This document shows positions 19,927-58,469 of a stretch of DNA of 64,000 bases, in pieces. Source of the stretch: Escherichia coli. GTDB taxonomy: Bacteria > Pseudomonadota > Gammaproteobacteria > Enterobacterales > Enterobacteriaceae. Numbering within the stretch: position 1 is the first letter of the stretch; each line of letters begins with the position of its first letter. The DNA lies in NCBI RefSeq assembly GCF_013122565.1, contig NZ_CP053258.1; one strand, 5' to 3'. A program made the position numbers and the translations under genes. The notes beneath the pieces are model-generated. The model was not told the origin of the DNA. It made no database searches and saw nothing but the letters and a program-made list of their open reading frames with translations.

Positions 19927-19928
19927 GG

Positions 19929-22381: not shown

Positions 22382-22391
22382 TTCCGTTTCT

Positions 22392-24781: not shown

Positions 24782-24792
24782 CTTTCAGCTCC

Positions 24793-25068: not shown

Positions 25069-25071
25069 AGG

Positions 25072-26192: not shown

Positions 26193-26194
26193 TG

Positions 26195-26617: not shown

Positions 26618-26640
26618 GCTGTGCTCCTTAGCAAATGGGG

Positions 26641-26916: not shown

Positions 26917-26935
26917 ACAGCGTTTCTCCTGTGGA

Positions 26936-29108: not shown

Positions 29109-29117
29109 AGTTCGTCC

Positions 29118-29636: not shown

Positions 29637-29650
29637 GAAGGTTTCCTTTG

Positions 29651-30319: not shown

Positions 30320-30328
30320 TTCTCACCC

Positions 30329-31993: not shown

Positions 31994-32011
31994 AAATCTG
32001 CCTCAGAGAAT

Positions 32012-32824
32012 TCAGATGTAGGAAGGGCGATCGTTTTTCGGTGTATCGCCAAGAGTCGAAAGCACGGTTTTACCGATTTCGCGTGCGGAGATGACCGCCT
32101 GGCGGACTGCGCCGGAGTCACCCGAGATAATCAGAATGACTTCATTGCTGTAGCTGGTGCCTTGAGCGGGGGAGCTGTATGCCACAACATCCACATTGGC
32201 GGACTTCAGCGCGGTGTCGGCCATCAGAACACCCACAGCAGCCGGAGCGCCGACAATAACGCCGCAAGCCCGTCCCAATGGTGCACCAAACGCTTTTTCC
32301 AGTGCATAGCTGGCGCGGGCGGTATATTGCAGCTCAAGATGTCCGGCTTCGTTGGCATAGACATCGCCAAAGGTCCGATCGAGTTCTTTCAGGGCGACTT
32401 CAATACCGCGTTTCACGTCGGAAACATCGTTGCCACCTAAGAGGATCAATGAGCCATGCCCGGCACCGCCTTTAGTATCGCGAGGAAGTTCAATGCTAAT
32501 AACTTCAGTGTTGGTGGCTTTTACCGCTTCATCAGCGGCCATAATGTGTGGCCCTGCGCCAATACGCGCACCCAGAATGCCAATGGAACGATAGCGTTTT
32601 TCAAGTTTCATCGCGTCCAACAGGGCGCTATCAACGTTCGCAATGACCAGACCTACAGTGTCGCCAATAGCGGTGCCAACAAATTCTGTTAACGTGCAGC
32701 TTTTTTCTGCCATAGCCGTCTCTCGTATTTGATGAGTGGTTTTCGGGAGAACCTCATGCTCTGGCGTCGCTACGCGAGCGATGACCTGCGCCATGATCTG
32801 TTCGACCAGTTCATTGCTGCTCAT
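32012..32824 (-). CDS. pduB: microcompartment shell protein PduB (tandem BMC)
   Basis: 270 aa; tandem BMC domains. Confidence 0.93.
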
Positions 32825-33105
32825 GGGTTAATTCCCTTTGGTAAGATTTTTTCGACATCGGTATGTGGTCGGGGAATAACGTGTACGGCTTTTACTTCGC
32901 CGACGTTACGCGCAGCTGCGGCACCTGCGTCTGTTGCCGCTTTTACCGCCCCGACATCACCACGAACGATGACGGTCACCAGCCCGGAACCTATTTTTTC
33001 GTAGCCGACCAGCAAAACATTTGCTGACTTCACCATGGCGTCTGCGGCCTCTATGGCGGCAGTTAAGCCTTTGGTTTCTACCATTCCTAACGCTTCTTGT
33101 TGCAT
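32821..33105 (-). CDS. pduA: microcompartment shell protein PduA (BMC hexamer)
   Basis: 94 aa [30 protein letters not shown]...; first gene of the operon. Confidence 0.95.
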
Positions 33106-33617
33106 AAAGACCTCGTCTGGATTTTTTTGACGATATGACTATAAAAAAAAGCGAGGAAAAAGAATGGCTGACTTAATCGGCTAATGAGAAAAATTAATAG
33201 AGGGCAAATATTATAAAATTGCTTTTATGAACTATATGTTGTTAATTTATTAGTTGTTTTGTGGATATTTCAATGTGAATTAATTGCGTTGGCTGAGGAG
33301 GTTAATCGCGGATAAAATTTCGTTGGGTTTGGTTCGCGGAAGGGAATTGTGATATTTGTTTAAATTTTATTATATCATGATGACAATTTTTTATTGTAAA
33401 AGCTTGGCGGTAATTATTACTTTCAACACTGATTAACGCTGTGTTGCATGATTCTGCAATGACAATAATTTGTTATCTTAGCACGATTTTTACACGAGTC
33501 TGTCATGCATGTTGGCAATATTTTCTGCAGAGCAATTTTTTATAGTTGCGCTCGGTATACACAACAATCAGCGCATAGTTGGCTGATAAAGAAAAACTCC
33601 GTAAAGAAGGTGTCACT
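33106..33617. promoter_or_regulatory. AT-rich divergent control region between pduA and pduF (pdu and pduF-pocR promoters, presumed PocR sites)
   Basis: 512 bp non-coding, strongly AT-rich, separating the divergently transcribed pduA and pduF; individual promoter elements not resolved. Confidence 0.6.
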
Positions 33618-34427
33618 ATGAATGATTCACTCAAGGCGCAATGCGTTGCCGAGTTTTTGGGCACTGGACTGTTCCTCTTTTTTGGCATTGGTTGTTTGTG
33701 CGCCCTGAAAGTTGCCGGGGCAAGTCTGGGACTGTGGGAAATTTGTATCATTTGGGGGTTAGGGATTTCGCTTGCTGTTTACCTTACGGCAGGTATTTCC
33801 GGCGCTCATCTTAACCCGGCTGTTACCATTGCTCTGTGGCTGTTTGCCTCTTTCCCAGCCCGTAAAGTGCTGCCATTTTGTGTGGCGCAATTAGCGGGTG
33901 CCTTTGGTGGTGCGGTTCTGGCATATTCTCTATACAGCAATTTGTTTATCGATTTTGAATCTGCTCACAATATGGTGCGTGGTAGTGCAGAAAGTTTACA
34001 ACTCGCCAGTATCTTCAGTACTTATCCGGCAGCGGCGATTAATGTATGGCAAGCTGCGTTGGTCGAAGTGGTCATAACGTCCATGTTAATGGGGTTGATT
34101 ATGGCGTTGACCGATGACGGTAATGGCGTACCCAAAGGACCGCTTGCGCCTTTACTTATTGGTATTCTGGTTGCTGTTATTGGTGCTTCTACCGGACCAT
34201 TAACCGGTTTTGCCATGAATCCAGCGCGTGATTTTGGACCTAAGATTTTCACCTGGCTTGCGGGGTGGGGGGAAATTGCGATGACTGGTGGACGCAATAT
34301 TCCTTATTTCATTGTACCCATTATTGCACCGATCATTGGGGCATGTGTTGGTGCGGCGATTTATCGCTATCTCATTGCAAAGAATTTACCTGTCAATAGT
34401 GTAACGCCTAAAGAAATTAGCGAATAA
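33618..34427 (+). CDS. pduF: propanediol diffusion facilitator (aquaporin/GlpF family)
   Basis: Translation MNDSLKAQCVAEFLGTGLFLFFG... with two NPA motifs (HLNPAVT and NPARD). Confidence 0.93.
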   Translation: MNDSLKAQCVAEFLGTGLFLFFGIGCLCALKVAGASLGLWEICIIWGLGISLAVYLTAGISGAHLNPAVTIALWLFASFPARKVLPFCVAQLAGAFGGAVLAYSLYSNLFIDFESAHNMVRGSAESLQLASIFSTYPAAAINVWQAALVEVVITSMLMGLIMALTDDGNGVPKGPLAPLLIGILVAVIGASTGPLTGFAMNPARDFGPKIFTWLAGWGEIAMTGGRNIPYFIVPIIAPIIGACVGAAIYRYLIAKNLPVNSVTPKEISE

Positions 34428-34629
34428 CGAAATACTCTGGCAGTTATAAACGTTTATTTTTTTACTGTTTGTGATCTGCTTTCCGAACTTATTAAAAAGT
34501 CTCCCGCTTCACGGAGGCTTTTGTTATTGTCCTTTGTGCTTCTCGTCAGTAAATCATCAGGGATGATGTGAAGATTAAATGTAAAACAATTGTTTTGCTA
34601 TAACAATAAATTAACTGGGAGGTTTTATC

Positions 34630-35544
34630 ATGATTTCTGCGGCGACACTTAATTCAGAACTCATTAATAAAATCGCGCAGGATTTTGCGCAGGCGACCAG
34701 CCTTGCGGTTGTCGTGGTCAATATTCACGGCGATGAAATTTCCGAGCTGTTTAACTTCACTCCATTTTGTCAGATGATGCGGCAACACCCTCAGCTAAGC
34801 ACTCGATGTCGCATGAGTGATCGTTGTGGGGGCCTGGAAGCCTCTAAGTCCGATCAGCCTTGTATTTATCGCTGTCATGCCGGATTAACCGATTTCTCTA
34901 TTCCTCTGGTAATCGCCGGACATTTAGTTGGTTTTGTATTGTGCGGGCAAGTTCGTCTGCGTAATGATGATGTCGATTTGGTTGATATTCTGAATGTCGA
35001 TGATTGCTGGCAGGCAGATCCCGAATTACTTAATGAATTCCGCAAAGTCCCTGAGATGGATTACTCAAGAGTTATGGCCTCTGCTGATTTGTTGAAGTTG
35101 ATTGTGGAAAATTGCCTCAAAAAACAACTCAATTTTGTGGTTATTAAAGAAAACAAATCTCAGTCAGATTCGGTGCGCCAGACTCGTGCGCCTAATCCCC
35201 ACGACAATAAAATGAAAAAAGCTTTACGCTATATTGATGCACATTTATCAGACGATTTGCGTCTGGAGGATGTCGCCTCACATGTTTACCTAAGCCCTTA
35301 TTATTTCAGTAAGTTATTTAAGAAATACCATGGAATCGGGTTTAATGCGTGGGTAAACCAACAACGGATGGCCAGCGCTCGTGAGTTACTGTGCCATAGC
35401 GACTGGAGCATCGCCAGCATTGCGCGTAATTTAGGTTTTTCCCAAACCAGTTATTTTTGCAAAGTTTTCCGTCAGACTTATCAGGTTACGCCGCAGGTGT
35501 ATCGGCAGCAAGTGAATGAAAATGCGGCGATGGAAATGGTATAG
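34630..35544 (+). CDS. pocR: AraC-family regulator of pdu/cob (PocR)
   Basis: 304 aa; N-terminal PocR sensory domain and C-terminal AraC-type HTH. Confidence 0.93.
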   Translation: MISAATLNSELINKIAQDFAQATSLAVVVVNIHGDEISELFNFTPFCQMMRQHPQLSTRCRMSDRCGGLEASKSDQPCIYRCHAGLTDFSIPLVIAGHLVGFVLCGQVRLRNDDVDLVDILNVDDCWQADPELLNEFRKVPEMDYSRVMASADLLKLIVENCLKKQLNFVVIKENKSQSDSVRQTRAPNPHDNKMKKALRYIDAHLSDDLRLEDVASHVYLSPYYFSKLFKKYHGIGFNAWVNQQRMASARELLCHSDWSIASIARNLGFSQTSYFCKVFRQTYQVTPQVYRQQVNENAAMEMV

Positions 35545-35654
35545 AGTAAATGCCCCAAAAAAAGAGGACGGTTTAAATAAACTCTGGAATGAATAATTAA
35601 CGTTATTTACCTGTTATGGGAAAAGTAAAATCAGCTCATAACATACGCTGACAG

Positions 35655-35905
35655 GTGTGGCACATTTGTGCCTGGGAAGAGGGTGAAAATCCCTCGCAGC
35701 CCCCGCTGCTGTAATGCTGACAAACCCGAAAATGCCACTGATCGCGAGATTGGGAAGGTCGGGAGAGGATGACGCTAAGCCAGAAGACCAGTCTGTCAGT
35801 CAATACCAACAACTTCGGTGGGAAGTGGGTTGCCCGGAAGCGTTCGGTAGAGTACAGGCGCGTCTTTATACCCCTACCACCCTGAAAGGATCAGGGTATG
35901 GCGGC
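35655..35905 (+). promoter_or_regulatory. cobalamin (AdoCbl) riboswitch
   Basis: Conserved elements read directly: GGGAAGAGGGTGAAAATCCCTCGCAGCCCCCGCTGCTGTAA, GCCACTG...GGGAAGGTCGGG, and B12 box AAGCCAGAAGACCAGTC. Confidence 0.75.
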
Positions 35906-36028
35906 ATCATTTAGTTCTTTCATCGCAGTGCCGACAGGCACCAGGGATGCATTCAAGGTGTGGCAATATTGTTTCATGGCTTATCAACCAGAGCGCCATT
36001 ACAGGAAATTAAGTGGAGGGCGAGAGGC

Positions 36029-36466
36029 ATGAAAACGATAAAACCCGAATCGATAGCTCTTTTTTGCCTCTTATCTGGAGATGTGGATCTGGCGAAACAT
36101 CTGGCGGAAATATTGCCAATAACCTGTTTTGTTGGTGAGGACTGGCAGCAAGATTTCCAGCCTCTTAACGGTGGGCCTGTGCAATCGTTATCAGATGCGT
36201 ATAGCGATTATTCAGTGCTGCTATTGATAGCAGCTGAAAGCGAGATATCCGTACCAGAATGGCTCGCTCATTCTGAGGGAACGACGGTAATTTTGATTGC
36301 AGAACACAATGCCCGTTTACTGACTGGTCCGGCTGGTGGGGCTGTAGCATTAATCCATTATCTGAATGAAATCTGTCATTCCAGAGAAACCGCTGTCAAT
36401 GACGCATTTTGTCATACGTTAACACGAGGAAGTCGGGCTATTCCACAATGCCATCTTCTTTCGTAA
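36029..36466 (+). CDS. hypothetical protein downstream of the B12 riboswitch (ORF may extend to GTG 35960)
   Basis: ORF 35960..36466; internal ATG at 36029 is preceded by a GGAGGG Shine-Dalgarno; no family recognised by eye; sits where the cbi genes would be. Confidence 0.4.
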   Translation: MKTIKPESIALFCLLSGDVDLAKHLAEILPITCFVGEDWQQDFQPLNGGPVQSLSDAYSDYSVLLLIAAESEISVPEWLAHSEGTTVILIAEHNARLLTGPAGGAVALIHYLNEICHSRETAVNDAFCHTLTRGSRAIPQCHLLS

Positions 36467-39037: not shown

Positions 39038-39964
39038 ATGATGCGTCGTGTAAATATTCTTTGCTCATTTGCTCTGCTTTTTGCCAGCCATACTAGCCTG
39101 GCGGTAACCTATCCATTACCTCCAGAGGGTAGCCGTTTAGTGGGGCAGTCGCTTACTGTAACTGTTCCTGATCACAATACCCAGCCGCTGGAGACTTTTG
39201 CCGCACAATACGGGCAAGGGTTAAGTAACATGCTTGAAGCGAACCCGGGCGCTGATGTTTTTTTGCCGAAGTCTGGCTCGCAACTCACCATTCCGCAGCA
39301 ACTGATTTTGCCCGCCACTGTTCGTAAAGGGATTGTGGTTAACGTCGCTGAGATGCGTCTTTATTACTACCCGCCAGACAGTAATACTGTGGAAGTCTTT
39401 CCTATTGGTATCGGCCAGGCTGGGCGAGAAACCCCGCGTAACTGGGTGACTACCGTTGAACGTAAACAAGAAGCACCAACCTGGACGCCAACGCCGAACA
39501 CTCGGCGCGAATATGCGAAACGAGGGGAGAGTTTGCCCGCATTTGTTCCTGCGGGGCCCGATAATCCCATGGGGCTGTACGCGATTTATATTGGCAGGTT
39601 GTATGCCATCCATGGTACCAATGCCAATTTTGGTATTGGACTTCGGGTAAGTCAGGGCTGTATTCGTCTGCGCAATGACGATATCAAGTATCTGTTTGAT
39701 AATGTTCCTGTAGGTACTCGTGTGCAAATTATCGACCAGCCAGTAAAATACACCACTGAACCAGATGGCTCGAACTGGCTGGAAGTTCATGAGCCGCTGT
39801 CGCGCAATCGTGCAGAATATGAGTCTGACCGAAAAGTGCCATTGCCTGTAACCCCATCTTTGCGGGCGTTTATCAACGGGCAAGAAGTTGATGTGAATCG
39901 CGCAAATGCTGCGTTGCAACGACGATCGGGAATGCCTGTGAATATCAACCGTAACGGATTTTGA
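39038..39964 (+). CDS. ldtA: L,D-transpeptidase (YkuD domain), LdtA/ErfK
   Basis: Signal peptide plus YkuD catalytic motif [24 protein letters not shown]. Confidence 0.93.
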
Positions 39965-40137
39965 CATTCAAAACGTCTGGTTTTTCGGTCTGAGTAAGCA
40001 TTACGTCATGCAGAACAGGTTGTTTCGAATCATACAAATCATAATTTTCTTCTCATATGCGCATCTCTTATGAGCATAATCGTTATACTCTTCTGATTTA
40101 TACATGTTTGCTGATGACATGATCAATGGAAAAGAGA

Positions 40138-41103
40138 ATGACGAAACAGAAAAAAAACAGCCGCTGGCAGGGTTACGATCCTCGCTACATATACTCGCTC
40201 GTGGTCAGACGTTATTTTGCGGATATGAAAACCAAGATTGAGATTGCAGAGGAGCTTGGCGTTTCCCGCTTTAAAGTTGCCAGATTGATCGATGAGGCGA
40301 TCGAACAGGATTACGTGAGGTTTATCTTCCCTAAGCAGCAAGCGATGGATGAAGAAATCGCCAATAATCTACGGAAAAAATTTCATCTGGAAGATGCAAT
40401 TGTTCTTTCAGTTGCTGAATCCTGGACGACGCAAGAAGAACTCAATCACAAATTGGGTGAAGTCACCGCTGAATATCTTATGCAATCTCTTCATGAAGGT
40501 ATGAAAGTGGGGATCGCCTGGGGACGTGTATTATCAAGCACGGTCAGTAAGTTGAGCAAGTTGCCTCCTTTAGACGTTGTGCAGTTATCTGGCGTACATC
40601 CGGGGATAGAGTTTAGTCAAGGGCCAATAGATCTTATTCATAAGATCGCTGCCATTTCGCAGGGAAAAGCGCACCCAATGTACGTGCCGATGTGGGTCGA
40701 TGACGAAGAGCTTGCTGCCAGACTGGCAGGTGATCCTGCGGTATTAGATACACAGCAATATTACTCACAGTTGGATGTGGTTATCACCGGGATAGGTGAC
40801 TGGAAATCAGGTTCTTCAAGCTTGTATAAAATATTTCCGGATACCTGGTGCGAAGCTTTGTTTCAACAAGATATCGCTGCGGATGTGTGTATCTCGTTGG
40901 TCAACAGGGAAGGGAAGATTCTTCATAGTCCTATTGAACGTCTGGGATTTGGCATTTCGACGGATCAACTACAAAAAGCCAAAAAAGTGATTGGTGTCGC
41001 TGGAGGAGAAGAAAAATATGAAGGCATTCTTGCTTCGCTGAAATCCGGACTTTTGAATGTCTTAATTACTGATTTTGATACGGCCATTAAACTTCTGGAT
41101 TAA
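40138..41103 (+). CDS. SorC/DeoR(Bsu)-family transcriptional regulator with sugar-phosphate-binding domain
   Basis: N-terminal HTH (KIEIAEELGVSRFKVARLI) and C-terminal SorC-type sugar-binding domain; ATG 40138 preceded by AAGAGA; first gene of the island. Confidence 0.8.
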   Translation: MTKQKKNSRWQGYDPRYIYSLVVRRYFADMKTKIEIAEELGVSRFKVARLIDEAIEQDYVRFIFPKQQAMDEEIANNLRKKFHLEDAIVLSVAESWTTQEELNHKLGEVTAEYLMQSLHEGMKVGIAWGRVLSSTVSKLSKLPPLDVVQLSGVHPGIEFSQGPIDLIHKIAAISQGKAHPMYVPMWVDDEELAARLAGDPAVLDTQQYYSQLDVVITGIGDWKSGSSSLYKIFPDTWCEALFQQDIAADVCISLVNREGKILHSPIERLGFGISTDQLQKAKKVIGVAGGEEKYEGILASLKSGLLNVLITDFDTAIKLLD

Positions 41104-41154
41104 TAGCCATATCAGTGAAGAAAGGGCAGTACCGCTGATTCTGCCCTTTTAATT

Positions 41155-41613
41155 TCAGGATGCTGCGAGCGTATCCTCTACATATTTAGCCACGTGCGTT
41201 GCAGGTAAATTGCGGCAAGTCTCAACAAAGGCGTTATCCTGAAACAGTGTGAATAAACGACGCAATATCGACATATGTTGATCACTGGTGGCAAATGCCA
41301 GGTTAAACATAATGCTACAATCAACTGTTAAATCAGCATCTTCCATTTGCCCGAAAGTGACATCATTGGCGAAACGAACAATACTGATACTGTTTACATT
41401 TACCAGCGTGTAATCGGCATGGGGAATGGCGATACCCTGACCGTTTGCCATCATTAGTCCTGTCGGATAGCTTTTTTCACGTTCCAGGCAGGCGTCAATG
41501 TATTCTGCAGTGATGTAGCCTTTTTCCAATAATTGCGTACCGGCAAAGGTGATCGCAGTTTGATAGTCACTGATGCTGTTATCAACATCATTCACCAGAA
41601 TTTCAAGTTTCAT
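41155..41613 (-). CDS. PTS enzyme IIA component (PTS_EIIA_2, fructose/mannitol/galactitol type)
   Basis: 152 aa with phospho-His motif GIAIPHA. Confidence 0.85.
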   Translation of the reverse strand: MKLEILVNDVDNSISDYQTAITFAGTQLLEKGYITAEYIDACLEREKSYPTGLMMANGQGIAIPHADYTLVNVNSISIVRFANDVTFGQMEDADLTVDCSIMFNLAFATSDQHMSILRRLFTLFQDNAFVETCRNLPATHVAKYVEDTLAAS

Positions 41614-41623
41614 TGCACACCTG

Positions 41624-41908
41624 TTATTTCAACATCTCTTCTTTAACTGCAGCGAAAATCTCATCTTCGCCCAGACCTGTCAGTAATCCAGCGCCAACGA
41701 TGACACGAGTAGTAATGGCCGGGTTATCGAGTTTGGTCGATGAAACCACCAGGTCATAGCTGTTGAAGGTATCGCTGGTGCATGCCATTAACGAAGATTT
41801 ATCGACTTGCGCTTCAATTTTCTCTTCTTTCAGGAAGTCCTGCAGTACAGAGACCATGATGGAAGATGAGGCAATTCCGTTTCCGCAAACTACTAAGATT
41901 TTTTTCAT
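41624..41908 (-). CDS. PTS enzyme IIB component (galactitol/ascorbate type)
   Basis: 94 aa; N-terminal KILVVCGNGIASS with phospho-Cys. Confidence 0.85.
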   Translation of the reverse strand: MKKILVVCGNGIASSSIMVSVLQDFLKEEKIEAQVDKSSLMACTSDTFNSYDLVVSSTKLDNPAITTRVIVGAGLLTGLGEDEIFAAVKEEMLK

Positions 41909-41931
41909 TTGATTATTCCTCTGTAAAAGAT

Positions 41932-43302
41932 TTAAAGCGCTTTTTCCAAATCCGTTTCAATCTGGCGACGTGATTTTTGTTTAATTAAGTATCCAATAGA
42001 TAACAAAAGGATACCTGCCATCAAATAGCCAATGATTCCAACATGGCTCAGGGCGGCAAACAGACCAGTAAATGGATTCGCTGACGGGTTAAGTGAAGAG
42101 TACATTACGCTGGCATCCGGGTTTGTACCAAATTTCTGGAAGACTTCGTTGGTAGCCGGTGCCATCCACGACGCAATATACAGACCACCACCGAACAAAA
42201 TGATCGAGGTCACCCAGGTGCGAATAATGTTGCCATTAAAAACAGGTACCATGCAGGCAATAAAAAACACAAACTGAGAGAGGTCACCCAGTGGCATAAC
42301 GCGGTTGCCGGGCAAGATCACGGCGAGGATCACAATGACCGGGATCAGTAATAATGCAGGGGCGATAACTGATGGATGACCCACAATCAGAGCAGTGTCC
42401 ATACCAACAGTGATTTGACGATCCGGGAACCGTTTGACCAGTTTTTTGCGTGCTACGTTGGAAAGCGGAACAAGTCCTTCCATCATGATAGAGGTCATAC
42501 GTGGTAACAGAAGCATGACCGCAGCCAGATACATCCCTAACTGTAGGCTGGCGATTATGGTGTGGTATGGGGATTTCCAGCCATAACCACAAAAGCCCAA
42601 CAAAATACCAATAATAAAACCAACCATAGTTGGATCGCCGAGAATGCCAAACCGTTTTTGAATAGTTTCGGCGGTCACATTCAGATTACGGAAGCCTGGG
42701 ATGCGATCATAAATCCAGTTGAATGGATAAGCGAAAAGTAAGTAGGTATTGGCAACCGGGTGAGAGATCGCAACACCTTTTGGCAGGTTAAAGAATTTTT
42801 CGTTATTTTTAGCACCAAGATCGGCAGCGATCAGCGCCCAGACATGGAATAGCGCGGCGGTCAATGCGCCATACAGGAAACTACCAGAATAGACGCCAAC
42901 AATTGCCCCCATTGACGCATTTTGATGAAGGTTGAAAACATCAACGTTAACACAGTCAGTCAGGCGGGCGACCAGCATTGCAATATTTACCGCAACACAG
43001 AGGGGAATAATGATAGCGCCCATGCTGGAGCCAAATCCCATAACCGCAGTCGCTGCGCCACCAACATCGATGGCACTGAGCGAGGAACCTGTTGCTTCTG
43101 CTAATCCGGTGACTGCCGGTTGCATTTTTTCCAGCATCAGTTTGATGGTCATGGTTAGCGCAATGAAACCAATGCCTACTTTGATGGCAGACGAGATACA
43201 TTCAGAAAGAGGACGGCCAAGTATCTTCATCAGTACCAGGAAGATGACCGGGATAAATATAAAATTTCCCAGATCGTTTATAAATTGCGTGATCAGTTCC
43301 AT
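41932..43302 (-). CDS. PTS enzyme IIC permease (galactitol-class)
   Basis: 456 aa polytopic membrane protein; GatC/SgcC-like. Confidence 0.85.
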   Translation of the reverse strand: MELITQFINDLGNFIFIPVIFLVLMKILGRPLSECISSAIKVGIGFIALTMTIKLMLEKMQPAVTGLAEATGSSLSAIDVGGAATAVMGFGSSMGAIIIPLCVAVNIAMLVARLTDCVNVDVFNLHQNASMGAIVGVYSGSFLYGALTAALFHVWALIAADLGAKNNEKFFNLPKGVAISHPVANTYLLFAYPFNWIYDRIPGFRNLNVTAETIQKRFGILGDPTMVGFIIGILLGFCGYGWKSPYHTIIASLQLGMYLAAVMLLLPRMTSIMMEGLVPLSNVARKKLVKRFPDRQITVGMDTALIVGHPSVIAPALLLIPVIVILAVILPGNRVMPLGDLSQFVFFIACMVPVFNGNIIRTWVTSIILFGGGLYIASWMAPATNEVFQKFGTNPDASVMYSSLNPSANPFTGLFAALSHVGIIGYLMAGILLLSIGYLIKQKSRRQIETDLEKAL

Positions 43303-43305
43303 ACA

Positions 43306-43842
43306 TTAACCCTCAGATTTTTCATCATCTGGTCGGAAACCCATATTCCAGCGTACATCAGCGGGCTTAACCAGCAATGCATTATCGTTACGTTCAGCTT
43401 CTAGTAAGTTCTTTTTAGAATTTTCTCTGGCGGTGGTGAAGTCGAATGGGTTATCCAACCATGCATCGACAATCATTTTGCTGTATTCGAGATCGTTGAC
43501 CCGGCAACCCAGTCCAATAACTTGTGCGTTATTGCTGAGTCGCGCCCGCTTTGCGGAGTAGGGGTTAGTAACCGCAACGGCTCTTATGCCCCAGTGTTTG
43601 TTGATCTGACAAGTAAAGCCAATGCCAGTCCCACAAATGTAAATTCCCAGACGGCACTCATCGCGTTGAATAATGCCTGCCATTTCGTCGGCCAGACGCG
43701 CGAAGTTATTGACACCTTGTTCCTTACATGTGACGGGATCGTACACGATCTCCATGTTTTTCTCTTCTATGAGGTATTTTTTTATCTCCTCTTTACGTGC
43801 AAAACCTACATCATCGCTTGCGATAGCAATCTTTGTTTTCAT
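43306..43842 (-). CDS. RpiB/LacA/LacB-family sugar-phosphate isomerase
   Basis: 178 aa; KIAIASDDVGF start and active-site CGTGIG motif; first gene of the minus-strand PTS operon. Confidence 0.8.
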   Translation of the reverse strand: MKTKIAIASDDVGFARKEEIKKYLIEEKNMEIVYDPVTCKEQGVNNFARLADEMAGIIQRDECRLGIYICGTGIGFTCQINKHWGIRAVAVTNPYSAKRARLSNNAQVIGLGCRVNDLEYSKMIVDAWLDNPFDFTTARENSKKNLLEAERNDNALLVKPADVRWNMGFRPDDEKSEG

Positions 43843-44190
43843 TTCATTTTGCCTGTCGTTAAGTAACTAAAGCCAAGTATGCTGTTGGTAAATATTGGTT
43901 GTCAATTGAGATCTAAATCACAAAATTTATAACTGATTGATTTTTAATGAATTAAAAACCAATAAAAACAAATAAAAAATAAATTAAGCCAATTAAAACA
44001 AAGTAGGCTTGCACAAGCACTTTGCAATTAATAATAAAAACACATTAAATATCAATCATATATATGAATTGCCAAACATTGTCTTTATTGGGCTTATTTG
44101 TACTTTCTACAGTTAGTGTTTGTTTTTGTTTGCATCATCTGTGCTATGCTTGGCGTTTTCTAAGATGGGCAATAGATTTCAGGAGGAAGG

Positions 44191-44946
44191 ATGTATCTGG
44201 TTGATGAAAGGCGAAAGTTAATACTTGAAGACTTAATGTCGGCAGGTACGGTCTATGTCAGTGATCTTGCACGAAAGTATGAAGTAACGTATGAGACCAT
44301 CAGGAAAGATTTGACCCATCTTGAACAAAAAGGGCTGCTGATCAAAAGCCATGGTGGGGCGACTTTAAAGCAAAGGGCCATAGAGCATCCCTTTCAGGTC
44401 AGGGAAAAAGAAAATAACTCTTATAAGAAGGCGATAGCTCGTAAAGCGCTTGATTTCATTCCGCCTAATAGTTCGATGATTATCGGTACGGGCAGTACCA
44501 CTTTTGAGCTGGCTAACCTGTTATGTATGAAGTCTGGGTTTAAAATCTTCACAGATTCGCTCCCCGTTGCCAGTGTGTTGATTGAATCTGACAATCAGGT
44601 TTTTCTCTTTGGCGGCGAACTGCGTAGAAAGAGTTCCTCAGTGTTTGGGGGGTGGGCGGTATCTATGATCAACGATATACATGTTGATCTCTGTTTCATT
44701 GGAACCGACGGCTTTAGTAACATGACTGGTCCATCGACGCCTTCTTCTTCTGATGCGTTTTTGGATCGCACGATAATTTCGCACTCAGACAAAAAATATA
44801 TCCTCGGTGATTACACCAAGTTTGAGCGCAGCAGTTTGTTTAAGATCTGCGACTGGTCGGAGATCACCGCCCTTATTACCAACGATCATGCCGACAAAGA
44901 GGGGATTGCCGAAGTCGCAAAATACACGTCAGTAATAACCTGTTAG
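44191..44946 (+). CDS. DeoR-family transcriptional regulator
   Basis: 251 aa; N-terminal DeoR HTH (RRKLILEDLMSAGTVYVSDLARKYEVTYETIRKDL) and C-terminal DeoR-C sensor domain; AGGAGG Shine-Dalgarno. Confidence 0.85.
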   Translation: MYLVDERRKLILEDLMSAGTVYVSDLARKYEVTYETIRKDLTHLEQKGLLIKSHGGATLKQRAIEHPFQVREKENNSYKKAIARKALDFIPPNSSMIIGTGSTTFELANLLCMKSGFKIFTDSLPVASVLIESDNQVFLFGGELRRKSSSVFGGWAVSMINDIHVDLCFIGTDGFSNMTGPSTPSSSDAFLDRTIISHSDKKYILGDYTKFERSSLFKICDWSEITALITNDHADKEGIAEVAKYTSVITC

Positions 44947-45123
44947 AACTCCCTACAACACGCCTTCTCCCTTCGAATCAGCTTTGCCAAATGTAATCAT
45001 TTCCAAATTATCAAGTGAGCATCCATGGTGATGCTTGCTTAGCGCCCTTTATTGAATGCATCCTCTGCATATTGCCAGTTGCACCTCATTTTTTGCGAAG
45101 AAATCATTTTTTGAATCACGGTT

Positions 45124-45262
45124 TGCTCATATGAGCATAAATGCTGTCGCCATTATGTGCTTTTTTGTGATCTGGATTTAATTTCTCAGATCTCGTCATT
45201 TATCCACAGGATCGTTGTGCTATAACTGCTCATATGAATATTGTTCAATGCTCATGTGAGCA
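45124..45262. promoter_or_regulatory. three copies of a TGCTCATATGAGCA-type palindromic operator upstream of the second PTS operon
   Basis: TGCTCATATGAGCA at 45124..45137 (perfect 14-bp palindrome), TGCTCATATGAATA at 45227..45240, TGCTCATGTGAGCA at 45249..45262. Confidence 0.6.
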
Positions 45263-45284
45263 TTGTGGGGTGAGGGGGAAGGAT

Positions 45285-45728
45285 ATGATATCGATCAGTG
45301 TTGCCGATGGTGCGGGACTACAGAACTACGATGCCGTGCTTGAACATATTTATAACACGCATCGTGAAACGAATACGGTGAAAGAGAGCTGGCTCAATGC
45401 TATGCGTAAACGCGAAGCGGAATATCCGACAGGAATAGAACTGGAAGGTTATTCTATCGCTATACCACACTGTGATAGTGAACATGCGAATCAACCGGCT
45501 ATTTATATCATCCGTCTGCCAGACGCAATACCTGTGAACAGGGCTGATGAAGATGGAATATTGTGGGTCAGACTCGTCGTTAATCTTATTGTTACGGATC
45601 CTGCTGACCAGCTTCGATTGTTAAAGTCATTATTTAACCATCTCCAAAATGAAGAATTTTACCAAAACTTACTGACACTTCCCGTCGATGATGCAAAAGC
45701 ACTTTTTGTGTCCAAAATAATCCAATAG
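45285..45728 (+). CDS. PTS enzyme IIA component (PTS_EIIA_2)
   Basis: Phospho-His motif SIAIPHC; ATG 45285 preceded by a GGGGGAAGGA ribosome-binding site; ORF-track start 45234 is probably an upstream extension. Confidence 0.85.
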   Translation: MISISVADGAGLQNYDAVLEHIYNTHRETNTVKESWLNAMRKREAEYPTGIELEGYSIAIPHCDSEHANQPAIYIIRLPDAIPVNRADEDGILWVRLVVNLIVTDPADQLRLLKSLFNHLQNEEFYQNLLTLPVDDAKALFVSKIIQ

Positions 45729-45746
45729 TAAAAACTGGAGTTTATT

Positions 45747-46040
45747 ATGATTAATATTCTTGTTGCTTGTGGTAGCGGTGTCGCTACATCTACGCTTGCT
45801 GCTGATGAAGTGAAGTCAGTATGTGCTGAATATGGTATTACGGCATTTAAAATCAACAAATGCAGTATGGCTGAACTTTCTTCTGAGATGGCTCATGCAG
45901 ATATTGTACTCACAACTAATAACTATAAAGGTGATATTGGGAAACCACATATGAGTGTTGCAGGTTTTGTAACGGGTATTAATGAAGGAGCATTACGCAA
46001 GAAATTAGGAGAGTTATTAACTGAATTAGCAAATAGCTAA
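45747..46040 (+). CDS. PTS enzyme IIB component (galactitol type)
   Basis: 97 aa; INILVACGSGVATS phospho-Cys motif. Confidence 0.85.
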   Translation: MINILVACGSGVATSTLAADEVKSVCAEYGITAFKINKCSMAELSSEMAHADIVLTTNNYKGDIGKPHMSVAGFVTGINEGALRKKLGELLTELANS

Positions 46041-46060
46041 ACCTGACAGGAATAATAAAA

Positions 46061-47314
46061 ATGGAAATGTTGAAAAATTTAATGGAAACCATCACCGGAA
46101 TGGGGGCAACTGCAATACTGCCGCTGGTGATATTTATTTTAGGTCTGGTGTTCAGAATGAAACCAGGTGCCGCGATCAAGTCGGGCATCACAGTCGGTAT
46201 TGGTTTTATTGGTTTAGGTTTGGTTGTTGGTTTATTAAATAGTTCATTACAGCCAGCTATTGAGTATTACTCAAAAGTAGGTAGTGGTTTTACGGTTGCA
46301 GATATTGGTTGGCCAGCAGTCGGTGCTGCTGCATGGGTAGCACCTTTTGCCGCATTAGTGATACCAGTTGGCATCGTACTTAACCTGATACTGGTGCGCC
46401 TGAAATTAACCAAAACGTTAAATGTTGATATCTGGAACTATATGCATTTTTTAGTTCCGGGCGCTCTGGCATATTTTGTGTTCGACAGTTTTATCATCGG
46501 CTTCTCTGTCGCGGTGGCTTTGAGTATTGCGGCTCTGTTTATTGGCGATTTGATTGCGCCCAGATGGCAAAAATATTATGGACTCGAGGGAACAACCTGT
46601 ACCACGATGATTCATATCGGCTGGACTCTACCGTTCGCCTGGGTAGTAAATAAAATCATTGATTACATCCCAGGGTTAAATAAGTTAGATGTTGATTTAA
46701 ACAGCGTGCAAAAACGCCTGGGTGTCTTTGGTGAACCTGCAATTATCGGTGTTATCGTTGGCGCATTACTCGGAGTTTTAACGAAACAGGCAATTACCAC
46801 AATTGTTCCCATGGCGATGGGGGTTGCTGGCGTAATGGTATTATTGCCTAAAGTGGTCGGTGTGCTGATGGAAGGTCTTAACCCGATTGGGAAAAGTGCT
46901 AAAGAAATCATGCAAAAACAGATGGGTAAAGATGCAGAATTAAACATCGGTATGGATTGTGCACTGGCGTTGGGGGATCCGGCTACGGTCACCGTGACAG
47001 TAATTACCATTCCTTTAACCATGCTATGTGCTCTGGTATTACCTGATATTAAGATCTTCCCAATCGGCGTATTGATGTCAATTATTTATATGACCACCAT
47101 GACCGTAATGGCGAGCAACGGTAACGTGATTCGTTCGATTATCTCGACCTTGTTATTCTGCGTTGTAGTGATGTATTTAGGCGGTTATGTCGCACCAGGG
47201 GCAACGCAATTTTTAGCTGGAGCCGGTGTAGGCTTGCAAGGACAAGGTACTGATTTTGTATTAACCGGCCCGTGGGAAATTTTAACCTATTGGTTGAGTA
47301 CCGTATTACATTGA
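46061..47314 (+). CDS. PTS enzyme IIC permease (galactitol-class)
   Basis: 417 aa polytopic membrane protein; GatC-like. Confidence 0.85.
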   Translation: MEMLKNLMETITGMGATAILPLVIFILGLVFRMKPGAAIKSGITVGIGFIGLGLVVGLLNSSLQPAIEYYSKVGSGFTVADIGWPAVGAAAWVAPFAALVIPVGIVLNLILVRLKLTKTLNVDIWNYMHFLVPGALAYFVFDSFIIGFSVAVALSIAALFIGDLIAPRWQKYYGLEGTTCTTMIHIGWTLPFAWVVNKIIDYIPGLNKLDVDLNSVQKRLGVFGEPAIIGVIVGALLGVLTKQAITTIVPMAMGVAGVMVLLPKVVGVLMEGLNPIGKSAKEIMQKQMGKDAELNIGMDCALALGDPATVTVTVITIPLTMLCALVLPDIKIFPIGVLMSIIYMTTMTVMASNGNVIRSIISTLLFCVVVMYLGGYVAPGATQFLAGAGVGLQGQGTDFVLTGPWEILTYWLSTVLH

Positions 47315-47336
47315 TTTAATAATCTGGAGTTTTAAC

Positions 47337-47981
47337 ATGGCAAAAATATTACCTTCTATATTTGGCGCGGATATTTTACGCCTGAAAGATGAAATTCATT
47401 TTCTGGAAGAGGAACAAACCGAAATATTGCACGTTGATTTAATGGATGGCACTTATGTCAGTAATATTGCCTTTGGCCCAAATCAAATAGCAGCAATGAA
47501 AAAAGCCAGTTCGATGATCTTTGATGTGCACATGATGCTGGCAAATCCTGAGCGACATATTGATGATGTAATCAATACCGGGGCGGAGATGATTTCTGTA
47601 CATTATGAATCGACGCCACATGTACATTATATTATTCAAAAAATCAAAAAAGCGGGTCGCAAAGCAGGTGTTGTGCTTAATCCTGGGACACCTGAATCTG
47701 TCATCGAGTATTTATTAGATGATATTGATTATATATTGTTAATGACAATTAACCCAGGGCAACCAGGCCAGACATTTATTCATAAAAGTCTGGAGAAAAT
47801 CCGTAATACCAAAAAAATGATATCTGGCAGAGATATTCAAATTGAAGTGGATGGTGGCGTTAATCTTGATAATGTAAAACAAGTTAAAGAAGCAGGGGCT
47901 GACCTTATTGTTGTTGGTGGTGCCTTATTTAACAAACAGCCTCGTGAAAGTTATCAGGCATTGAAAATCGCTATTCAGTGA
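47337..47981 (+). CDS. ribulose-phosphate 3-epimerase family protein (Rpe/AlsE/SgcE-like)
   Basis: 214 aa TIM-barrel epimerase; HVDLMDG and IEVDGG motifs. Confidence 0.85.
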   Translation: MAKILPSIFGADILRLKDEIHFLEEEQTEILHVDLMDGTYVSNIAFGPNQIAAMKKASSMIFDVHMMLANPERHIDDVINTGAEMISVHYESTPHVHYIIQKIKKAGRKAGVVLNPGTPESVIEYLLDDIDYILLMTINPGQPGQTFIHKSLEKIRNTKKMISGRDIQIEVDGGVNLDNVKQVKEAGADLIVVGGALFNKQPRESYQALKIAIQ

Positions 47982-48078
47982 TCACAATCTAAAAATTTCA
48001 CATCCAGTTAAGTGAGGTTTTCGATTTCATATCGGGAGGAAAACCTCAGCTAAAAAATGTCTTTAATGGAGAAAAGTA

Positions 48079-48831
48079 ATGAGTAATTTTGCAGGTAAAG
48101 TGGTTTTAGTTACCGGAGGTGCTCACGGTATTGGCAAAGGGATAGCTAAACAATTTGCTGATCGTGGTGCACATACTGTTATTGTTGACTATAACGAAGA
48201 GAACGGCAAGGCCACTGCAGCAGAGTTAACTTTTGGCGATGTTAAATCGCTGTTTGTTAAAACAGATGTCTCTGATCCACAGGCATTAGTGGATGTACGG
48301 GAAAAAGTATTTGCTACCTTTGGTCGTATTGATGTGTTGATATTAAATGCCGGTGTGGCATTTGCCAATAAAGTTAACAATATTTCTTTTGAGGAATGGA
48401 ATAAGACTATCGCAATTAATTTATCGGGATTATTTAATACCGTTAAGGCGTTTTATGATGATTTCCTGACAAATAAGGGATCTATTGTTTATATCTCATC
48501 GGGATCAGCACTTTCGGGGACTGGAGGCGGTGTGAGTTATCCAGCCAGTAAAGCGGGAGGCGAAGGGTTGATTCGCGGTCTGGCGAAGGAGTTAGGACCA
48601 AAAGGCGTCAATGTTAATGCGATTGCTCCCCGCTTAATAGACACCGGAGAGATGATGCGGGTCAACTATCCGACACAAGCCGATTTAGACGCTGTCCTGG
48701 AAAAAATACCCGTCCGTCGTCTGGGAACTATCGATGATGTGGCTAACCTGGCAATATTTTTGGCAGATAAAGATAACTCTTATATTCAGGGACAAACCAT
48801 TTTAATGGATGGTGGCCGGACTATTGCTTAA
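48079..48831 (+). CDS. short-chain dehydrogenase/reductase (SDR)
   Basis: 250 aa; TGGAHGIGKGIA Rossmann motif and YPASK catalytic Tyr-x3-Lys. Confidence 0.85.
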   Translation: MSNFAGKVVLVTGGAHGIGKGIAKQFADRGAHTVIVDYNEENGKATAAELTFGDVKSLFVKTDVSDPQALVDVREKVFATFGRIDVLILNAGVAFANKVNNISFEEWNKTIAINLSGLFNTVKAFYDDFLTNKGSIVYISSGSALSGTGGGVSYPASKAGGEGLIRGLAKELGPKGVNVNAIAPRLIDTGEMMRVNYPTQADLDAVLEKIPVRRLGTIDDVANLAIFLADKDNSYIQGQTILMDGGRTIA

Positions 48832-48846
48832 AAAGGGAGAGAAAAA

Positions 48847-49407
48847 ATGAGTGTTCAGGAAAATACTATTAATATTCTGCATGAATTAGAGAGTAATGCG
48901 CTGAAGATTGACGATGCTCAGGCTTCACAGTTCATTTCGCAAATCAGAAATGCCCGGCATATTTTTTTGCAGGGAGCTGGTCGCAGTGGCATTGCTATTC
49001 GCGCTTTTGCTAATCGCTTGCTGCATTTAGGTTTTTCAGTAAGCGTTGTGGGAGAAATATCATCACCGCATACTCAACCTGGAGATCTATTAATTATTGG
49101 GTCAGGCAGTGGTGAAACTACCAGTTTGAAAAGTCTGGCACAAAAAGCAGTTGATAGCGGAGTAAACGTCGCTCTGGTAACTATGAAAGCTGATTCAACG
49201 ATCGGTAAATTAGCTCAATCTGTGTTGGTACTACCAGGAAGTGTGAAAGACGATAACAATCGTGTTGCAGGCGCTTTCGCGCAACCAATGGGCTCAGCTT
49301 TTGAGCAACTCTGCTTTATTACTTATGATGCAATTGTTCTGGAGTTGATGTCTGAACTGGGTGAAAGCAGTGCCACAATGTTTACCCGACACGCTGATCT
49401 GGAATGA
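48847..49407 (+). CDS. SIS-domain sugar-phosphate isomerase (6-phospho-3-hexuloisomerase-like)
   Basis: 186 aa single SIS domain (LQGAGRSGIAIRAF...IGSGSGET). Confidence 0.75.
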   Translation: MSVQENTINILHELESNALKIDDAQASQFISQIRNARHIFLQGAGRSGIAIRAFANRLLHLGFSVSVVGEISSPHTQPGDLLIIGSGSGETTSLKSLAQKAVDSGVNVALVTMKADSTIGKLAQSVLVLPGSVKDDNNRVAGAFAQPMGSAFEQLCFITYDAIVLELMSELGESSATMFTRHADLE

Positions 49408-49425
49408 CTAAAAAGTTGGTAATTA

Positions 49426-49462
49426 GAAAGCAAAAAGCCTGCTAGAAAGCAGGCTTTTTTGA
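49426..49462. terminator. bidirectional terminator between the island operon and asnV
   Basis: AAAAAGCCTGCTAGAAAGCAGGCTTTTTT hairpin. Confidence 0.75.
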
Positions 49463-49465
49463 ATT

Positions 49466-49541
49466 TGGCTCCTCTGACTGGACTCGAACCAGTGACATAC
49501 GGATTAACAGTCCGCCGTTCTACCGACTGAACTACAGAGGA
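49466..49541 (-). tRNA. asnV: tRNA-Asn (GUU)
   Basis: 76-nt reverse complement of TCCTCTGTAGTTCAGTCGGTAGAACGGCGGACTGTTAATCCGTATGTCACTGGTTCGAGTCCAGTCAGAGGAGCCA; anticodon loop CTGTTAA. Confidence 0.95.
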
Positions 49542-53872: not shown

Positions 53873-54223
53873 TTTCTGTGTTTCGTGCGCTTAATCGAGT
53901 CTCATGTTTCATTGAGCAAATTGCCCCCAACAGACATCACGATTCGCAAGTTCAAAAACTTCGTTCCGTGAAGTACCGTACAAAGATAAAGAAAAAATAC
54001 CTTACGCGGGATGTCGCTGTCGCGTCTTTATCGGGAAACTATACGTAATTGCCACTTTGTCTTCGGTAATCAGAAAAAGAAGACCTGCCATATTAATAAA
54101 TATTATTTCTCTGGGGACGGAGATTTTTTATAAGCAATATGACGAGTTAAACATTATATTTTTTATAAGGATTATATGAGATTAAAGAAATCTGCCATAA
54201 AAACAGATTTCTTTAAAATATAA

Positions 54224-54940
54224 TTAGAGATTTGCGACGTTATGATAAACTTTTTGTACATCGTCGTCATCTTCAAGGGCATCAACAAGCCCTTCAAAGA
54301 TTTCTAAATCTTCTGGGGAAAGCTCAACTTCTGATTGAGCAATCATTTCTAATTCTGTTGTTGAGAACTCAGTGATTCCAGCTGCTTTTAGAGCCGCGAT
54401 TCCTTTATGAAGGTCAGTAGGTTCAGTATAAATAACAATGTTACCTTCTTCTTCAGTCACATCACGAACATCAACTTCAGCTTCAAGTAAAATTTCAAAA
54501 ATATGGTCAGGGTCTGTTCCTTTAAATACAATCACACCCGTATTGTCAAACATATAGCTGACAGAACCTGCCGCTCCGATATTGCCGCCTTTTTTATTGA
54601 AAATTGTGCGAACGTTAGCAATCGTACGGTTAACATTTGAAGTCAATGTCTCGGCGATAATCATTGAGCCATTAGGACCAAAGCCTTCATAACGGCCCTG
54701 CACGAACGTTTCATCTCCGCCGCCTTTGGCTTTATCAATTGCTTTATCAATAACGTGTTTTGGAACTTGTGCCTGCTTTGCACGTTCAATAACGAATTTT
54801 AAAGATGTGTTTAATTCTGGATCGGGTTCACCTTGTTTAGCAGCAGCATAGATTTCTACACCGAATTTTGCATAAATTTTAGACGTTGCACCGTCTTTAG
54901 CCGTTTTTTTAGCAACAATATTGGCCCATTTACGTCCCAC
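54224..54940 (-). CDS. yeeN: YebC/PmpR-family transcriptional regulator
   Basis: 238 aa [27 protein letters not shown]...; matches YeeN. Confidence 0.93.
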
Positions 54941-55282
54941 TGGAATGATCTCCTCGAAAATTTATTTACATTACTGGTAAATCGTTAACATGTGTTAATT
55001 CGGCATATTATATCATAACAGGAAAAATCTCGTCTATTAGAAATAAAAATATTCTAAAGTCATAATCTTATATTTAATTTTATAAAAACTTATAATGTTG
55101 GTGGGGTTTTTTATAATTGTGTTTTGAAAGCATACTTGCTTTTAATATGTGGAAATCATTAAGACGATAATAAAACTCGTATCCGCCCAAGGAAGCAAAC
55201 AGCCCGCGTTTATTGCGGGCTATTTGCCAGATGTCTTACTTAATCCTTCACATCTATTTTTGATAAGAAGGTTCAGAACTTA

Positions 55283-58155: not shown

Positions 58156-58469
58156 AATGATCCTGTTTGTACTGTCTTTTTATAATTAGTATGGAAAAGG
58201 TAACTCACATTGCCGTCGATCTATAAACGAACCTTATGAGACTACCTCGACAGAGCGCATCTGCAAATGATTTTATGGCTGATTAGCGGCAACATGAAAA
58301 ATTCGCTGGAAGATGAAAGCGCGGGAGTTGCTGGTGTTGTTTAAGGATTAAGCAGAGGACCCACAGGTTCGAGATATGAAACATAAAAGTCCGCATATGC
58401 ACAAAATGGCACCCTGATGAGTCTGATAGACTGCATTGCATTATAACCAGTAGGGAGGCGAGGTTAGGT

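Follow-up and report, generated by a model that had tools for sequence, protein, structure and literature searches.

A carbohydrate island with two Gat-family phosphotransferase modules beside asnV of Escherichia coli and the probable shared history of its halves

The island beside asnV and its genes

We analysed a stretch of 64,000 nucleotides from Escherichia coli (contig NZ_CP053258.1 of assembly GCF_013122565.1), hereafter the window, which carries beside the tRNA-Asn gene asnV an island encoding two phosphotransferase system (PTS) modules. A blastn comparison with the K-12 locus, a search for repeats and the annotation of empty and filled sites placed the island at 39941–49414 (9,474 bp, no strand assigned), where it replaces 37 bp that are found at the empty site of K-12. 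Its left edge falls inside the last codons, at the 3′ end, of ldtA, and its right edge lies 51 bp past the 3′ end of asnV (49466–49541, minus strand), beyond the asnV terminator; this right-hand neighbour is uninterrupted by the island. The local order is cobU-cobS-cobT-ldtA, the island, asnV, nac, cbl, a tRNA-Asn gene, yeeO, a further tRNA-Asn gene and yeeN, and the his operon of the window is up to 97.3% identical to that of complete E. coli genomes. Variable presence at a conserved chromosomal site and atypical composition mark the region as a horizontally acquired accessory island, as an initial annotation of this DNA had proposed, and it is an ordinary horizontally acquired carbohydrate island. 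The open reading frames (ORFs) of that annotation, its 348-bp spacer and the A-rich string that it quoted (at 43961) are all present.

At the far left, a gene for a SorC-type transcriptional regulator with a sugar-binding domain (sorC, 40126–41103, plus strand), which has NCBIfam matches to B. subtilis-type DeoR and LsrR, is followed on the minus strand by the RpiB-IIC-IIB-IIA operon of module 1 (op1, 41155–43842). The first gene of op1 encodes an RpiB/LacAB-family sugar-phosphate isomerase (rpiB, 43306–43842), and the others encode the Gat-family EIIC (IIC1, 41932–43302), the EIIB (IIB1, 41624–41908) and the EIIA (IIA1, 41155–41613) of that module. Beyond the spacer, deoR (44191–44946), for a DeoR/GlpR (AgaR-like) repressor, opens a series of plus-strand genes. 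These encode the EIIA of module 2 (IIA2, 45285–45728; longest ORF from 45234), its EIIB (IIB2, 45747–46040; G+C content at third codon positions, GC3, of 0.22) and its Gat-family EIIC (IIC2, 46061–47314), followed by a ribulose-phosphate 3-epimerase family enzyme (rpe, 47337–47981; TIGR01163, 235 bits, over its cut-off), an SDR-family NAD(P)-dependent dehydrogenase (sdr, 48079–48831) and an HxlB-type 6-phospho-3-hexuloisomerase with a SIS domain (hxlB, 48847–49407; TIGR03127, 209.6 bits, over its cut-off). The second operon of the initial annotation (op2) spans 44191–49407 and includes deoR, and the structural genes of op2, from IIA2 to hxlB, occupy 45285–49407.

The two PTS sets are ancient paralogues, being about 28% identical overall (IIC1 and IIC2, 29%). 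Both EIIC proteins match the EIIC-GAT profile TIGR00827 (E=1e-104 for IIC1 and E=4e-96 for IIC2), their homologues carry the Pfam domain PF03611, and the IIA and IIB proteins match the corresponding galactitol models; with this EIIC profile and separate EIIA and EIIB proteins, the modules belong to the Gat-family PTS (TC 4.A.5). The galactitol-specific equivalog models were not reached, IIC1 and IIC2 scoring 350.6 and 322.5 against an NCBIfam cut-off of 542.2, IIA2 and IIA1 scoring 136.1 and 81.6 against a IIA cut-off of 139, and IIB2 scoring 50.7 against a IIB cut-off of 95, and galactitol is therefore probably not the substrate. In E. coli K-12, the sgc and gat systems combine a DeoR-family repressor with a Gat-family PTS, sgc together with a ribulose-phosphate-3-epimerase-like gene. 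The island resembles them in its transporter superfamily, its DeoR/GlpR-type repressor and, in the case of sgc, its epimerase-like gene, but it differs in its IIC scores (350/322 bits against the 542 of the galactitol cut-off) and in its enzyme sets, and it is absent from K-12.

By analogy with the Gat-family systems of Firmicutes, each module is probably an uptake and phosphorylation system for a polyol or a rare ketose. Oxidation of the phosphorylated substrate would fall to the SDR of op2, whose product the epimerase and the HxlB-type isomerase would turn into fructose-6-phosphate or pentose phosphates; op1 would contribute its RpiB-family isomerase.

The asn tRNA genes of E. coli are a known hot spot for islands, the high-pathogenicity island lying at asnT and the pks island at asnW. 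Like these islands, the present one adjoins a tRNA-Asn gene, varies in its presence between strains (4% of complete genomes carry it) and has an atypical composition. Unlike them, it has no integrase gene, none being found among its 12 ORFs, all of which encode regulators, PTS components or sugar-phosphate enzymes; its left junction has no direct repeat of at least 8 bp of the tRNA-proximal sequence, and its edge lies past the terminator. Neither an integrase at the tRNA end nor insertion in the tRNA 3′ end with a repeat, the marks of an integrase-mediated tRNA-linked genomic island, was thus found. Literature searches for the gene cluster and for an island at asnV returned nothing specific. 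Since the left edge lies inside ldtA, carriers encode LdtA with a different C terminus (39941–39964), the protein being 308 aa long in island-bearing strains and 311 aa in K-12.

The full-length island was found in 225 of 5,426 complete E. coli genomes (4%), among them ATCC 8739, LF82 and G3/10, always on the chromosome and at the same single site in each genome. A 393-kb E. coli record that is labelled as a plasmid (CP088875.1) carries the island at 97.5% identity; since the island is otherwise strictly chromosomal in this species, the record could be a piece of chromosome under the wrong label or a very large replicon derived from the chromosome. In about 50 complete E. coli genomes, asnV is the site of a second element, which encodes a tyrosine integrase (on the side that corresponds to 49415–49541 of the window), and IS1-associated deletions eat into the island from the right to varying depths, the left end always being kept; the retained island lengths are 5725, 3543, 3388, 2740, 2367, 1949, 1260, 954, 397 and 185 bp. 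The approximately 50 genomes with truncated islands were considered as single-module ancestors and rejected, their truncations being nested right-hand deletions beside IS1 and the second asnV element. E. coli H2/EC12 was likewise rejected as an op2-only form, as IS66 copies are inserted in rpiB and op1 is still present.

Composition of the island and its divergent promoter region

From counts of sample 60-bp lines, the initial annotation had taken op1 to be host-like, at 50–57% G+C, and op2 to be more AT-rich. The computed G+C contents are 45.3% for op1, 41.7% for op2 (44191–49407) and 29.0% for the spacer between rpiB and deoR, compared with 54.9% for his, 52.1% for the propanediol utilisation (pdu) operon and 48.5% for the whole window. 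On the same 60-bp grid, the op1 lines have a mean of 0.455 (sd 0.068) and the op2 lines a mean of 0.417 (sd 0.067; Mann-Whitney p=0.003), and the two op1 lines that had been quoted (50% and 56.7%) stand at the 82nd and 98th percentiles of that operon. Op1 is not host-like, lying 7–10 points under his and pdu (p=4e-12 and p=4e-8, respectively, for the 60-bp lines). The greater AT-richness of op2 does not stand out in bulk composition, where the gap of 3.6 points is equalled by 32% of same-geometry segment pairs in the window, but it holds at synonymous third positions, whose G+C content (GC3s) is 0.447 in op1 and 0.354 in op2 (p=1e-5), compared with 0.510 in core genes and 0.503 in pdu. The heterogeneity of codon usage relative to core genes, expressed as the G statistic per degree of freedom (G/df), is mild in op1 (1.65), whose codon usage is indistinguishable from that of pdu, and strongly atypical in op2 (5.84). 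The genuine contrast between left and right is confined to synonymous sites, where GC3 is about 0.47 against 0.35.

The compositional boundary had been drawn at the spacer, with deoR on the side of op2. The GC3 change-point lies instead at 45398, with a support interval of 44907–45581 and a log-likelihood ratio (LLR) of 38.8 (95% of the null, 11.2), which is the deoR/IIA2 junction; in the same third-position analysis, the rpiB/deoR boundary had an LLR of 20.0 and fell outside the support interval. A change-point in raw-sequence G+C at 43754 (LLR 15.1; null maximum, 14.7) was set aside as driven by the AT-rich spacer, and because the spacer dominates the raw sequence, the third-position analysis was used instead. 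With the change-point at deoR/IIA2, deoR (GC3 0.49) therefore groups with sorC (GC3 0.44) and op1, not with the genes 3′ of it.

The spacer (43843–44190, 348 bp, no strand assigned) is as extremely AT-rich as had been noted, its 29.0% G+C placing it within the lowest 0.2% of 348-bp windows. Across six genera, approximately 150 bp on the rpiB side and approximately 90 bp on the deoR side are conserved and the middle is variable. The conserved block on the rpiB side contains a sigma-70-like promoter for op1 (43876–43905, minus strand; TTGACA-18-CATACT, 10 of 12 matches), which is a candidate by its match to the consensus, and a CRP-like candidate site, TGAGATCTAAATCACA (43909–43924, no strand assigned), which resembles the consensus TGTGA-N6-TCACA at 9 of 10 positions and whose TGAGAT and TCACA halves are invariant over the six genera. 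A group of A-tracts in the same block (A5, A5, A6 and A4; 43954–43998, plus strand) holds the string quoted by the initial annotation and is largely kept across genera. The phasing claimed for these tracts is a local feature, those at 43954, 43964 and 43974 (plus 43995) being spaced by 10–10.5 bp, but no significant AA/TT periodicity of 10–11 bp was found over the whole spacer (p=0.25). The G+C content of the spacer is 26–34% in every host compared, Enterococcus included. The spacer is a conserved divergent promoter and control region, not the seam of two acquisitions, and since it is AT-rich in all hosts, including Enterococcus, which is without H-NS, its composition has been inherited and constrained and is not a mark of silencing.

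Elsewhere in the island, 100-bp stretches with at least 70% A+T occur at 45981–46100 and 48341–48500 in op2 and at 41891–42000 in op1. Further stretches of this kind in the window are 33121–33480, in the control region between pduF and pduA; 54061–54280 and 54941–55180, which flank yeeN (GC3 0.27); and 58461–58730, at the start of a glycosyltransferase-family-9 gene (58470–59522, 38.7% G+C). Within 19372–36466, a pdu operon with pduF and pocR looks complete. In place of the expected large cbi/cob biosynthetic operon, just one ORF of 168 aa separates pocR from cobU, and this interval is annotated in related E. coli with a cobalamin riboswitch and a hypothetical protein.

Relatives of the island and the pairing of its regulators

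Outside E. coli, a scan with IIC2 as the query and one genome per species revealed two architectures. Architecture B, which is the composite of the window in identical gene order, is present at other chromosomal sites in Citrobacter, K. oxytoca, Enterobacter wuhouensis, Entomohabitans and Providencia. The composite is also carried on Klebsiella and Enterobacter IncF plasmids, a Salmonella assembly has it next to a phage-type integrase, and it is known in at least six other genera. In architecture A (Pantoea, Erwinia, Izhakiella, Brenneria, Pseudocitrobacter and UBA5654), sorC is directly followed by IIA2–hxlB. Rouxiella silvae has a distant op2-type variant with a LysR-type gene upstream and sorC 3′ of rpe, and Enterobacter sp. 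EA-1 has a degraded-looking composite of low identity (38% for IIC1 and 68% for IIC2). A second hxlB-like gene lies 3′ of IIA1 in Citrobacter, K. oxytoca, Klebsiella plasmids and Enterococcus. In the window, the gap between sorC and IIA1 is just 51 bp (41104–41154) and holds no such gene; the gene has therefore been cleanly lost in the E. coli lineage, and it has likewise been lost in Enterobacter wuhouensis, Entomohabitans, Providencia and the Salmonella assembly.

IIC2 is 90–94% identical to proteins of other Enterobacterales, 73–77% identical to those of Streptococcus cuniculi, several Enterococcus and Breznakia, 69% identical to that of Enterococcus sp. CU9D, and 49–64% identical to proteins of bacilli, lactobacilli, clostridia and Negativicutes. 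In an IIC2 tree rooted with IIC1, 196 of 200 bootstraps recovered the Enterobacterales as a single clade, and 192 of 200 placed them within a Firmicute grade. The IIC1 family forms a Firmicute-dominated continuum at 68–82% identity, in which the Enterococcus orthologues stand at 81–82%. Both modules lie side by side in Enterococcus raffinosus and in Enterococcus sp. CU9D, in the order deoR<>rpiB-IIC1-IIB1-IIA1-hxlB′, a gene for a 687-residue regulator with PRD and EIIA domains, and IIA-IIB2-IIC2-rpe-sdr-hxlB. The simplest reading is that both modules are of Firmicute origin and that the transfer ran from Firmicutes to Enterobacterales; the whole island would then be AT-rich relative to the host because both modules descend from Firmicute genes. 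The sdr gene is 92% identical to that of Enterococcus sp. CU9D (12030–12800), whereas the flanking genes are 68–74% identical, and the GC3 of the CU9D gene (0.44) is above that of most of its neighbours, which suggests a recent single-gene exchange across phyla, possibly back into Enterococcus.

Firmicute Gat-family polyol PTS are exemplified by the D-arabitol system atlABCD of Bacillus methanolicus (PMC6685057), and pentitol PTS pathways of Listeria monocytogenes and Enterococcus avium are cited in the same paper. Polyol clusters of Firmicutes have been annotated as 'galactitol' although the substrate is another polyol (PMC6685057). The island resembles these clusters in having a separate EIIA and EIIB and a Gat-type EIIC, followed by a dehydrogenase comparable to their polyol-phosphate dehydrogenase and predicted to feed the pentose-phosphate pathway, and its Enterococcus relatives use a BglG/PRD-type regulator, as the Firmicute polyol clusters do. 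It differs from them by the addition of an Rpe-type epimerase and an HxlB-type isomerase, by an SDR as the dehydrogenase and, in Enterobacterales, by the replacement of the PRD regulator with a SorC-type one.

The control region of op2 (44947–45284, plus strand), in which the GC3 change-point falls, contains three palindromes GCTCATATGAGC upstream of IIA2 (45125–45136, perfect; 45228–45239; and 45250–45261), a TGTGATC half-site (45166–45172) and an extended −10 element (TGcTATAAC, 45218–45226). Approximately 200 bp upstream of IIA2 are conserved whether deoR or sorC lies 5′. The palindrome, as GCTCAyrTGAGC, is found at fixed positions (about −45, −168 and −288 from IIA2) in the window and in all 14 of the sorC+op2 loci examined outside it. 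In the 64-kb window, matches to GCTCATATGAGC are confined to the region upstream of IIA2 and that upstream of sorC, where two weak copies with 2 mismatches each (40051–40075, plus strand; starts at 40051 and 40064), 50–75 bp 5′ of the gene, may be an autoregulatory operator. The palindrome was not found in the Firmicute loci, which have the PRD regulator and no sorC, or in a Klebsiella plasmid that carries op1 alone.

The palindrome thus tracks sorC, which lies directly 5′ of IIA2 in architecture A, and the SorC-type protein therefore probably controls op2 through this candidate operator, as judged from sequence. The arrangement deoR<>rpiB-IIC1-IIB1-IIA1 is found in Enterococcus and on the op1-only plasmid, and this pairing, together with the distribution of the palindrome, suggests that SorC acts on op2 and DeoR on op1; DeoR would probably control the divergent op1 from the shared spacer. 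The initial annotation had joined deoR with the genes from IIA2 to the SIS-domain gene in one unit, which is probably not a regulatory unit, as deoR goes with op1 by composition and synteny.

History of the two modules

The concatenated proteins of the op1 cassette and those of op2 gave one and the same topology, (Providencia,(window,(Entomohabitans,(Citrobacter, K. oxytoca, Enterobacter)))), with Enterococcus at the root; the initial annotation had suggested separate phylogenies of the two IIC proteins as a check, and the trees of the two modules are congruent and show no different histories. Among enterobacterial pairs, op2 has diverged about 1.4 times as much as op1 (window and Citrobacter are 92.3% identical in op1 and 89.5% in op2). 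The proportion of synonymous differences (pS) between the window and every non-E. coli copy is 0.7–0.9 in both halves, and because synonymous sites are saturated, dating of the halves from synonymous substitution rates (dS) was abandoned. Brenneria, with architecture A, nests inside the clade of architecture B and keeps the last approximately 35 codons of deoR between sorC and IIA2 (blastx E=2e-9), op1 being gone. Conversely, the op1-only Klebsiella plasmid, which shares its backbone with a composite-bearing plasmid, has lost op2 and keeps a decayed 3′ end of sorC. These remnants identify both loci as deletions of the composite, and the composite is the older state wherever remnants exist.

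Our preferred reading, which we consider reasonably likely, is that the window carries a single accessory catabolic island of approximately 9.5 kb, which was assembled before it reached Escherichia, moves as a unit and consists of two interlocking pairs of Firmicute descent. The outer pair would comprise the far-left SorC-type regulator and the op2 structural genes, whose own promoter is flanked by GCTCATATGAGC palindromes, and the inner pair would comprise the DeoR repressor and the divergent rpiB-IIC1-IIB1-IIA1, which would share the AT-rich 348-bp control region. Both pairs would have descended from polyol or ketose PTS clusters of Firmicutes, and the extra AT-richness of the op2 genes would reflect an unequal drift of the two parts towards the composition of the host. 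The GC3 gap, taken as left (op1 and deoR) minus right (IIB2–hxlB), is 0.122 in the window, 0.035–0.079 in six other Enterobacteriaceae copies, 0.015 in Providencia, and −0.047 and 0.015 in two Enterococcus. The gap is thus missing in hosts of low G+C and present in those of higher G+C, which fits unequal drift and not different arrival times, and we infer that unequal amelioration is the cause of the gap.

Several observations weigh against this reading. No remnants of op1 or deoR above noise were found in five architecture A loci (those of Pantoea, Erwinia, Izhakiella, Pseudocitrobacter and UBA5654), and sorC, by its GC3 of 0.44, groups with op1 and not with its proposed partner op2. The largest gap occurs in the E. 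coli copy, yet E. coli is not the host with the highest G+C, which unequal amelioration does not obviously predict. Moreover, the abrupt change-point adjoins IIA2, which is unusually divergent in E. coli (59–68% identical to all others), and the step beside this gene could be an old recombination junction.

The last point leads to the alternative that fares best, although we regard it as unlikely: the composite was acquired whole, and IIA2–hxlB (or, conversely, sorC–deoR) was then replaced in the E. coli lineage through recombination with a diverged copy from a host of low G+C. Such a replacement would account for a GC3 change-point that is abrupt and narrowly placed (44907–45581), for an E. 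coli gap about twice that of any other host, and for an IIA2 at the step that is 59–68% identical to the others, which are much closer to one another. However, the dN values and protein identities of IIB2–hxlB to each relative parallel those of op1, and op2 is no closer to that of low-G+C Providencia (85.8%) than to that of Citrobacter (89.5%). A search of 5.8 billion proteins with IIA2 showed at most 68% identity to any protein from outside E. coli, left the range from 94% to 68% empty and brought up no candidate donor. The E. coli-type sorC is also divergent (71–81% identical to other Enterobacterales copies, whereas the genes between sorC and IIA2 are 85–95% identical), so that rapid evolution of the end genes may be characteristic of this lineage; the E. 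coli version stands isolated from the rest. In Providencia, IIA2 is apparently missing altogether.

A second alternative attributes the pattern to silencing. H-NS has a preference, in E. coli and Salmonella, for AT-rich DNA gained by horizontal transfer. The island is AT-richer than the host genome and, like silenced xenogeneic DNA, is acquired DNA of 41–45% G+C in a host region of approximately 51–55%, with a promoter region of 29%. Binding of H-NS to island DNA in E. coli is therefore plausible and a reasonable expectation, although a literature search found no chromatin immunoprecipitation study of H-NS in a carrier strain. The initial annotation had singled out the AT-rich half as the target; at 41–45% G+C, both operons are expected to be targets, not op2 alone. 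H-NS might nucleate on the spacer and on patches of op2, and a silenced op2 would stay at, or drift towards, a low GC3 under AT-biased mutation. The spacer, with 71% A+T and locally phased A-tracts, and the stretches of at least 70% A+T are in keeping with this idea, but the latter lie in op1 as well as in op2, the spacer contains no match to the high-affinity motif TCGATAAATT within 2 mismatches, and the AT-richness of the promoter region, being shared with Enterococcus, predates entry into H-NS-bearing hosts. We consider it improbable that silencing maintains the pattern.

The proposal that the host gained the two PTS modules separately, op1 earlier or from a host-like donor and the genes from DeoR to SIS later from an AT-rich donor, with the spacer as the seam, can draw on the differences in GC3s and codon usage, on the likeness of op1 to pdu and on the occurrence of modules alone (Pantoea and Erwinia have architecture A, and several Firmicutes have op2-only loci), but it is strongly disfavoured and very improbable, given the unchanged gene order of plasmid copies, the Salmonella island and at least six other genera, the congruent trees with a constant divergence ratio and equally saturated synonymous sites in both halves, the deletion remnants, the change-point at deoR/IIA2, the regulatory spacer shared with Enterococcus, the 7–10 points by which op1 lies below his and pdu, and the origin of the partial E. 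coli islands as insertion sequence (IS) or deletion products.

A fuller scenario of import across phyla can be sketched, which we consider less likely than not. Two Firmicute cassettes would have become interlocked, with DeoR and op1 inside a newly recruited SorC and op2; the PRD activator and the EIIA would have been swapped for enterobacterial-style parts; and the units would have ameliorated at different rates, or one of them would have been replaced by recombination in E. coli.

The G+C step and the AT-rich spacer tempt one to read the locus as a seam, but the comparative data point to a conserved promoter and to halves that travelled together. What the analysis usefully adds is a correction of the module boundaries, a candidate operator and a slight asymmetry in composition that is still to be explained. 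The working annotation is revised accordingly: deoR probably belongs with the divergent RpiB operon, and the distant SorC-type gene probably controls the operon from IIA2 to HxlB. This reassignment of the regulators matters for work on LF82, ATCC 8739 and similar strains that aims to induce the genes or to find their substrates. If the import scenario is true, the island would provide a natural system for learning which factors govern the rate at which acquired genes take on the composition of the host, H-NS silencing and expression level being the candidates.

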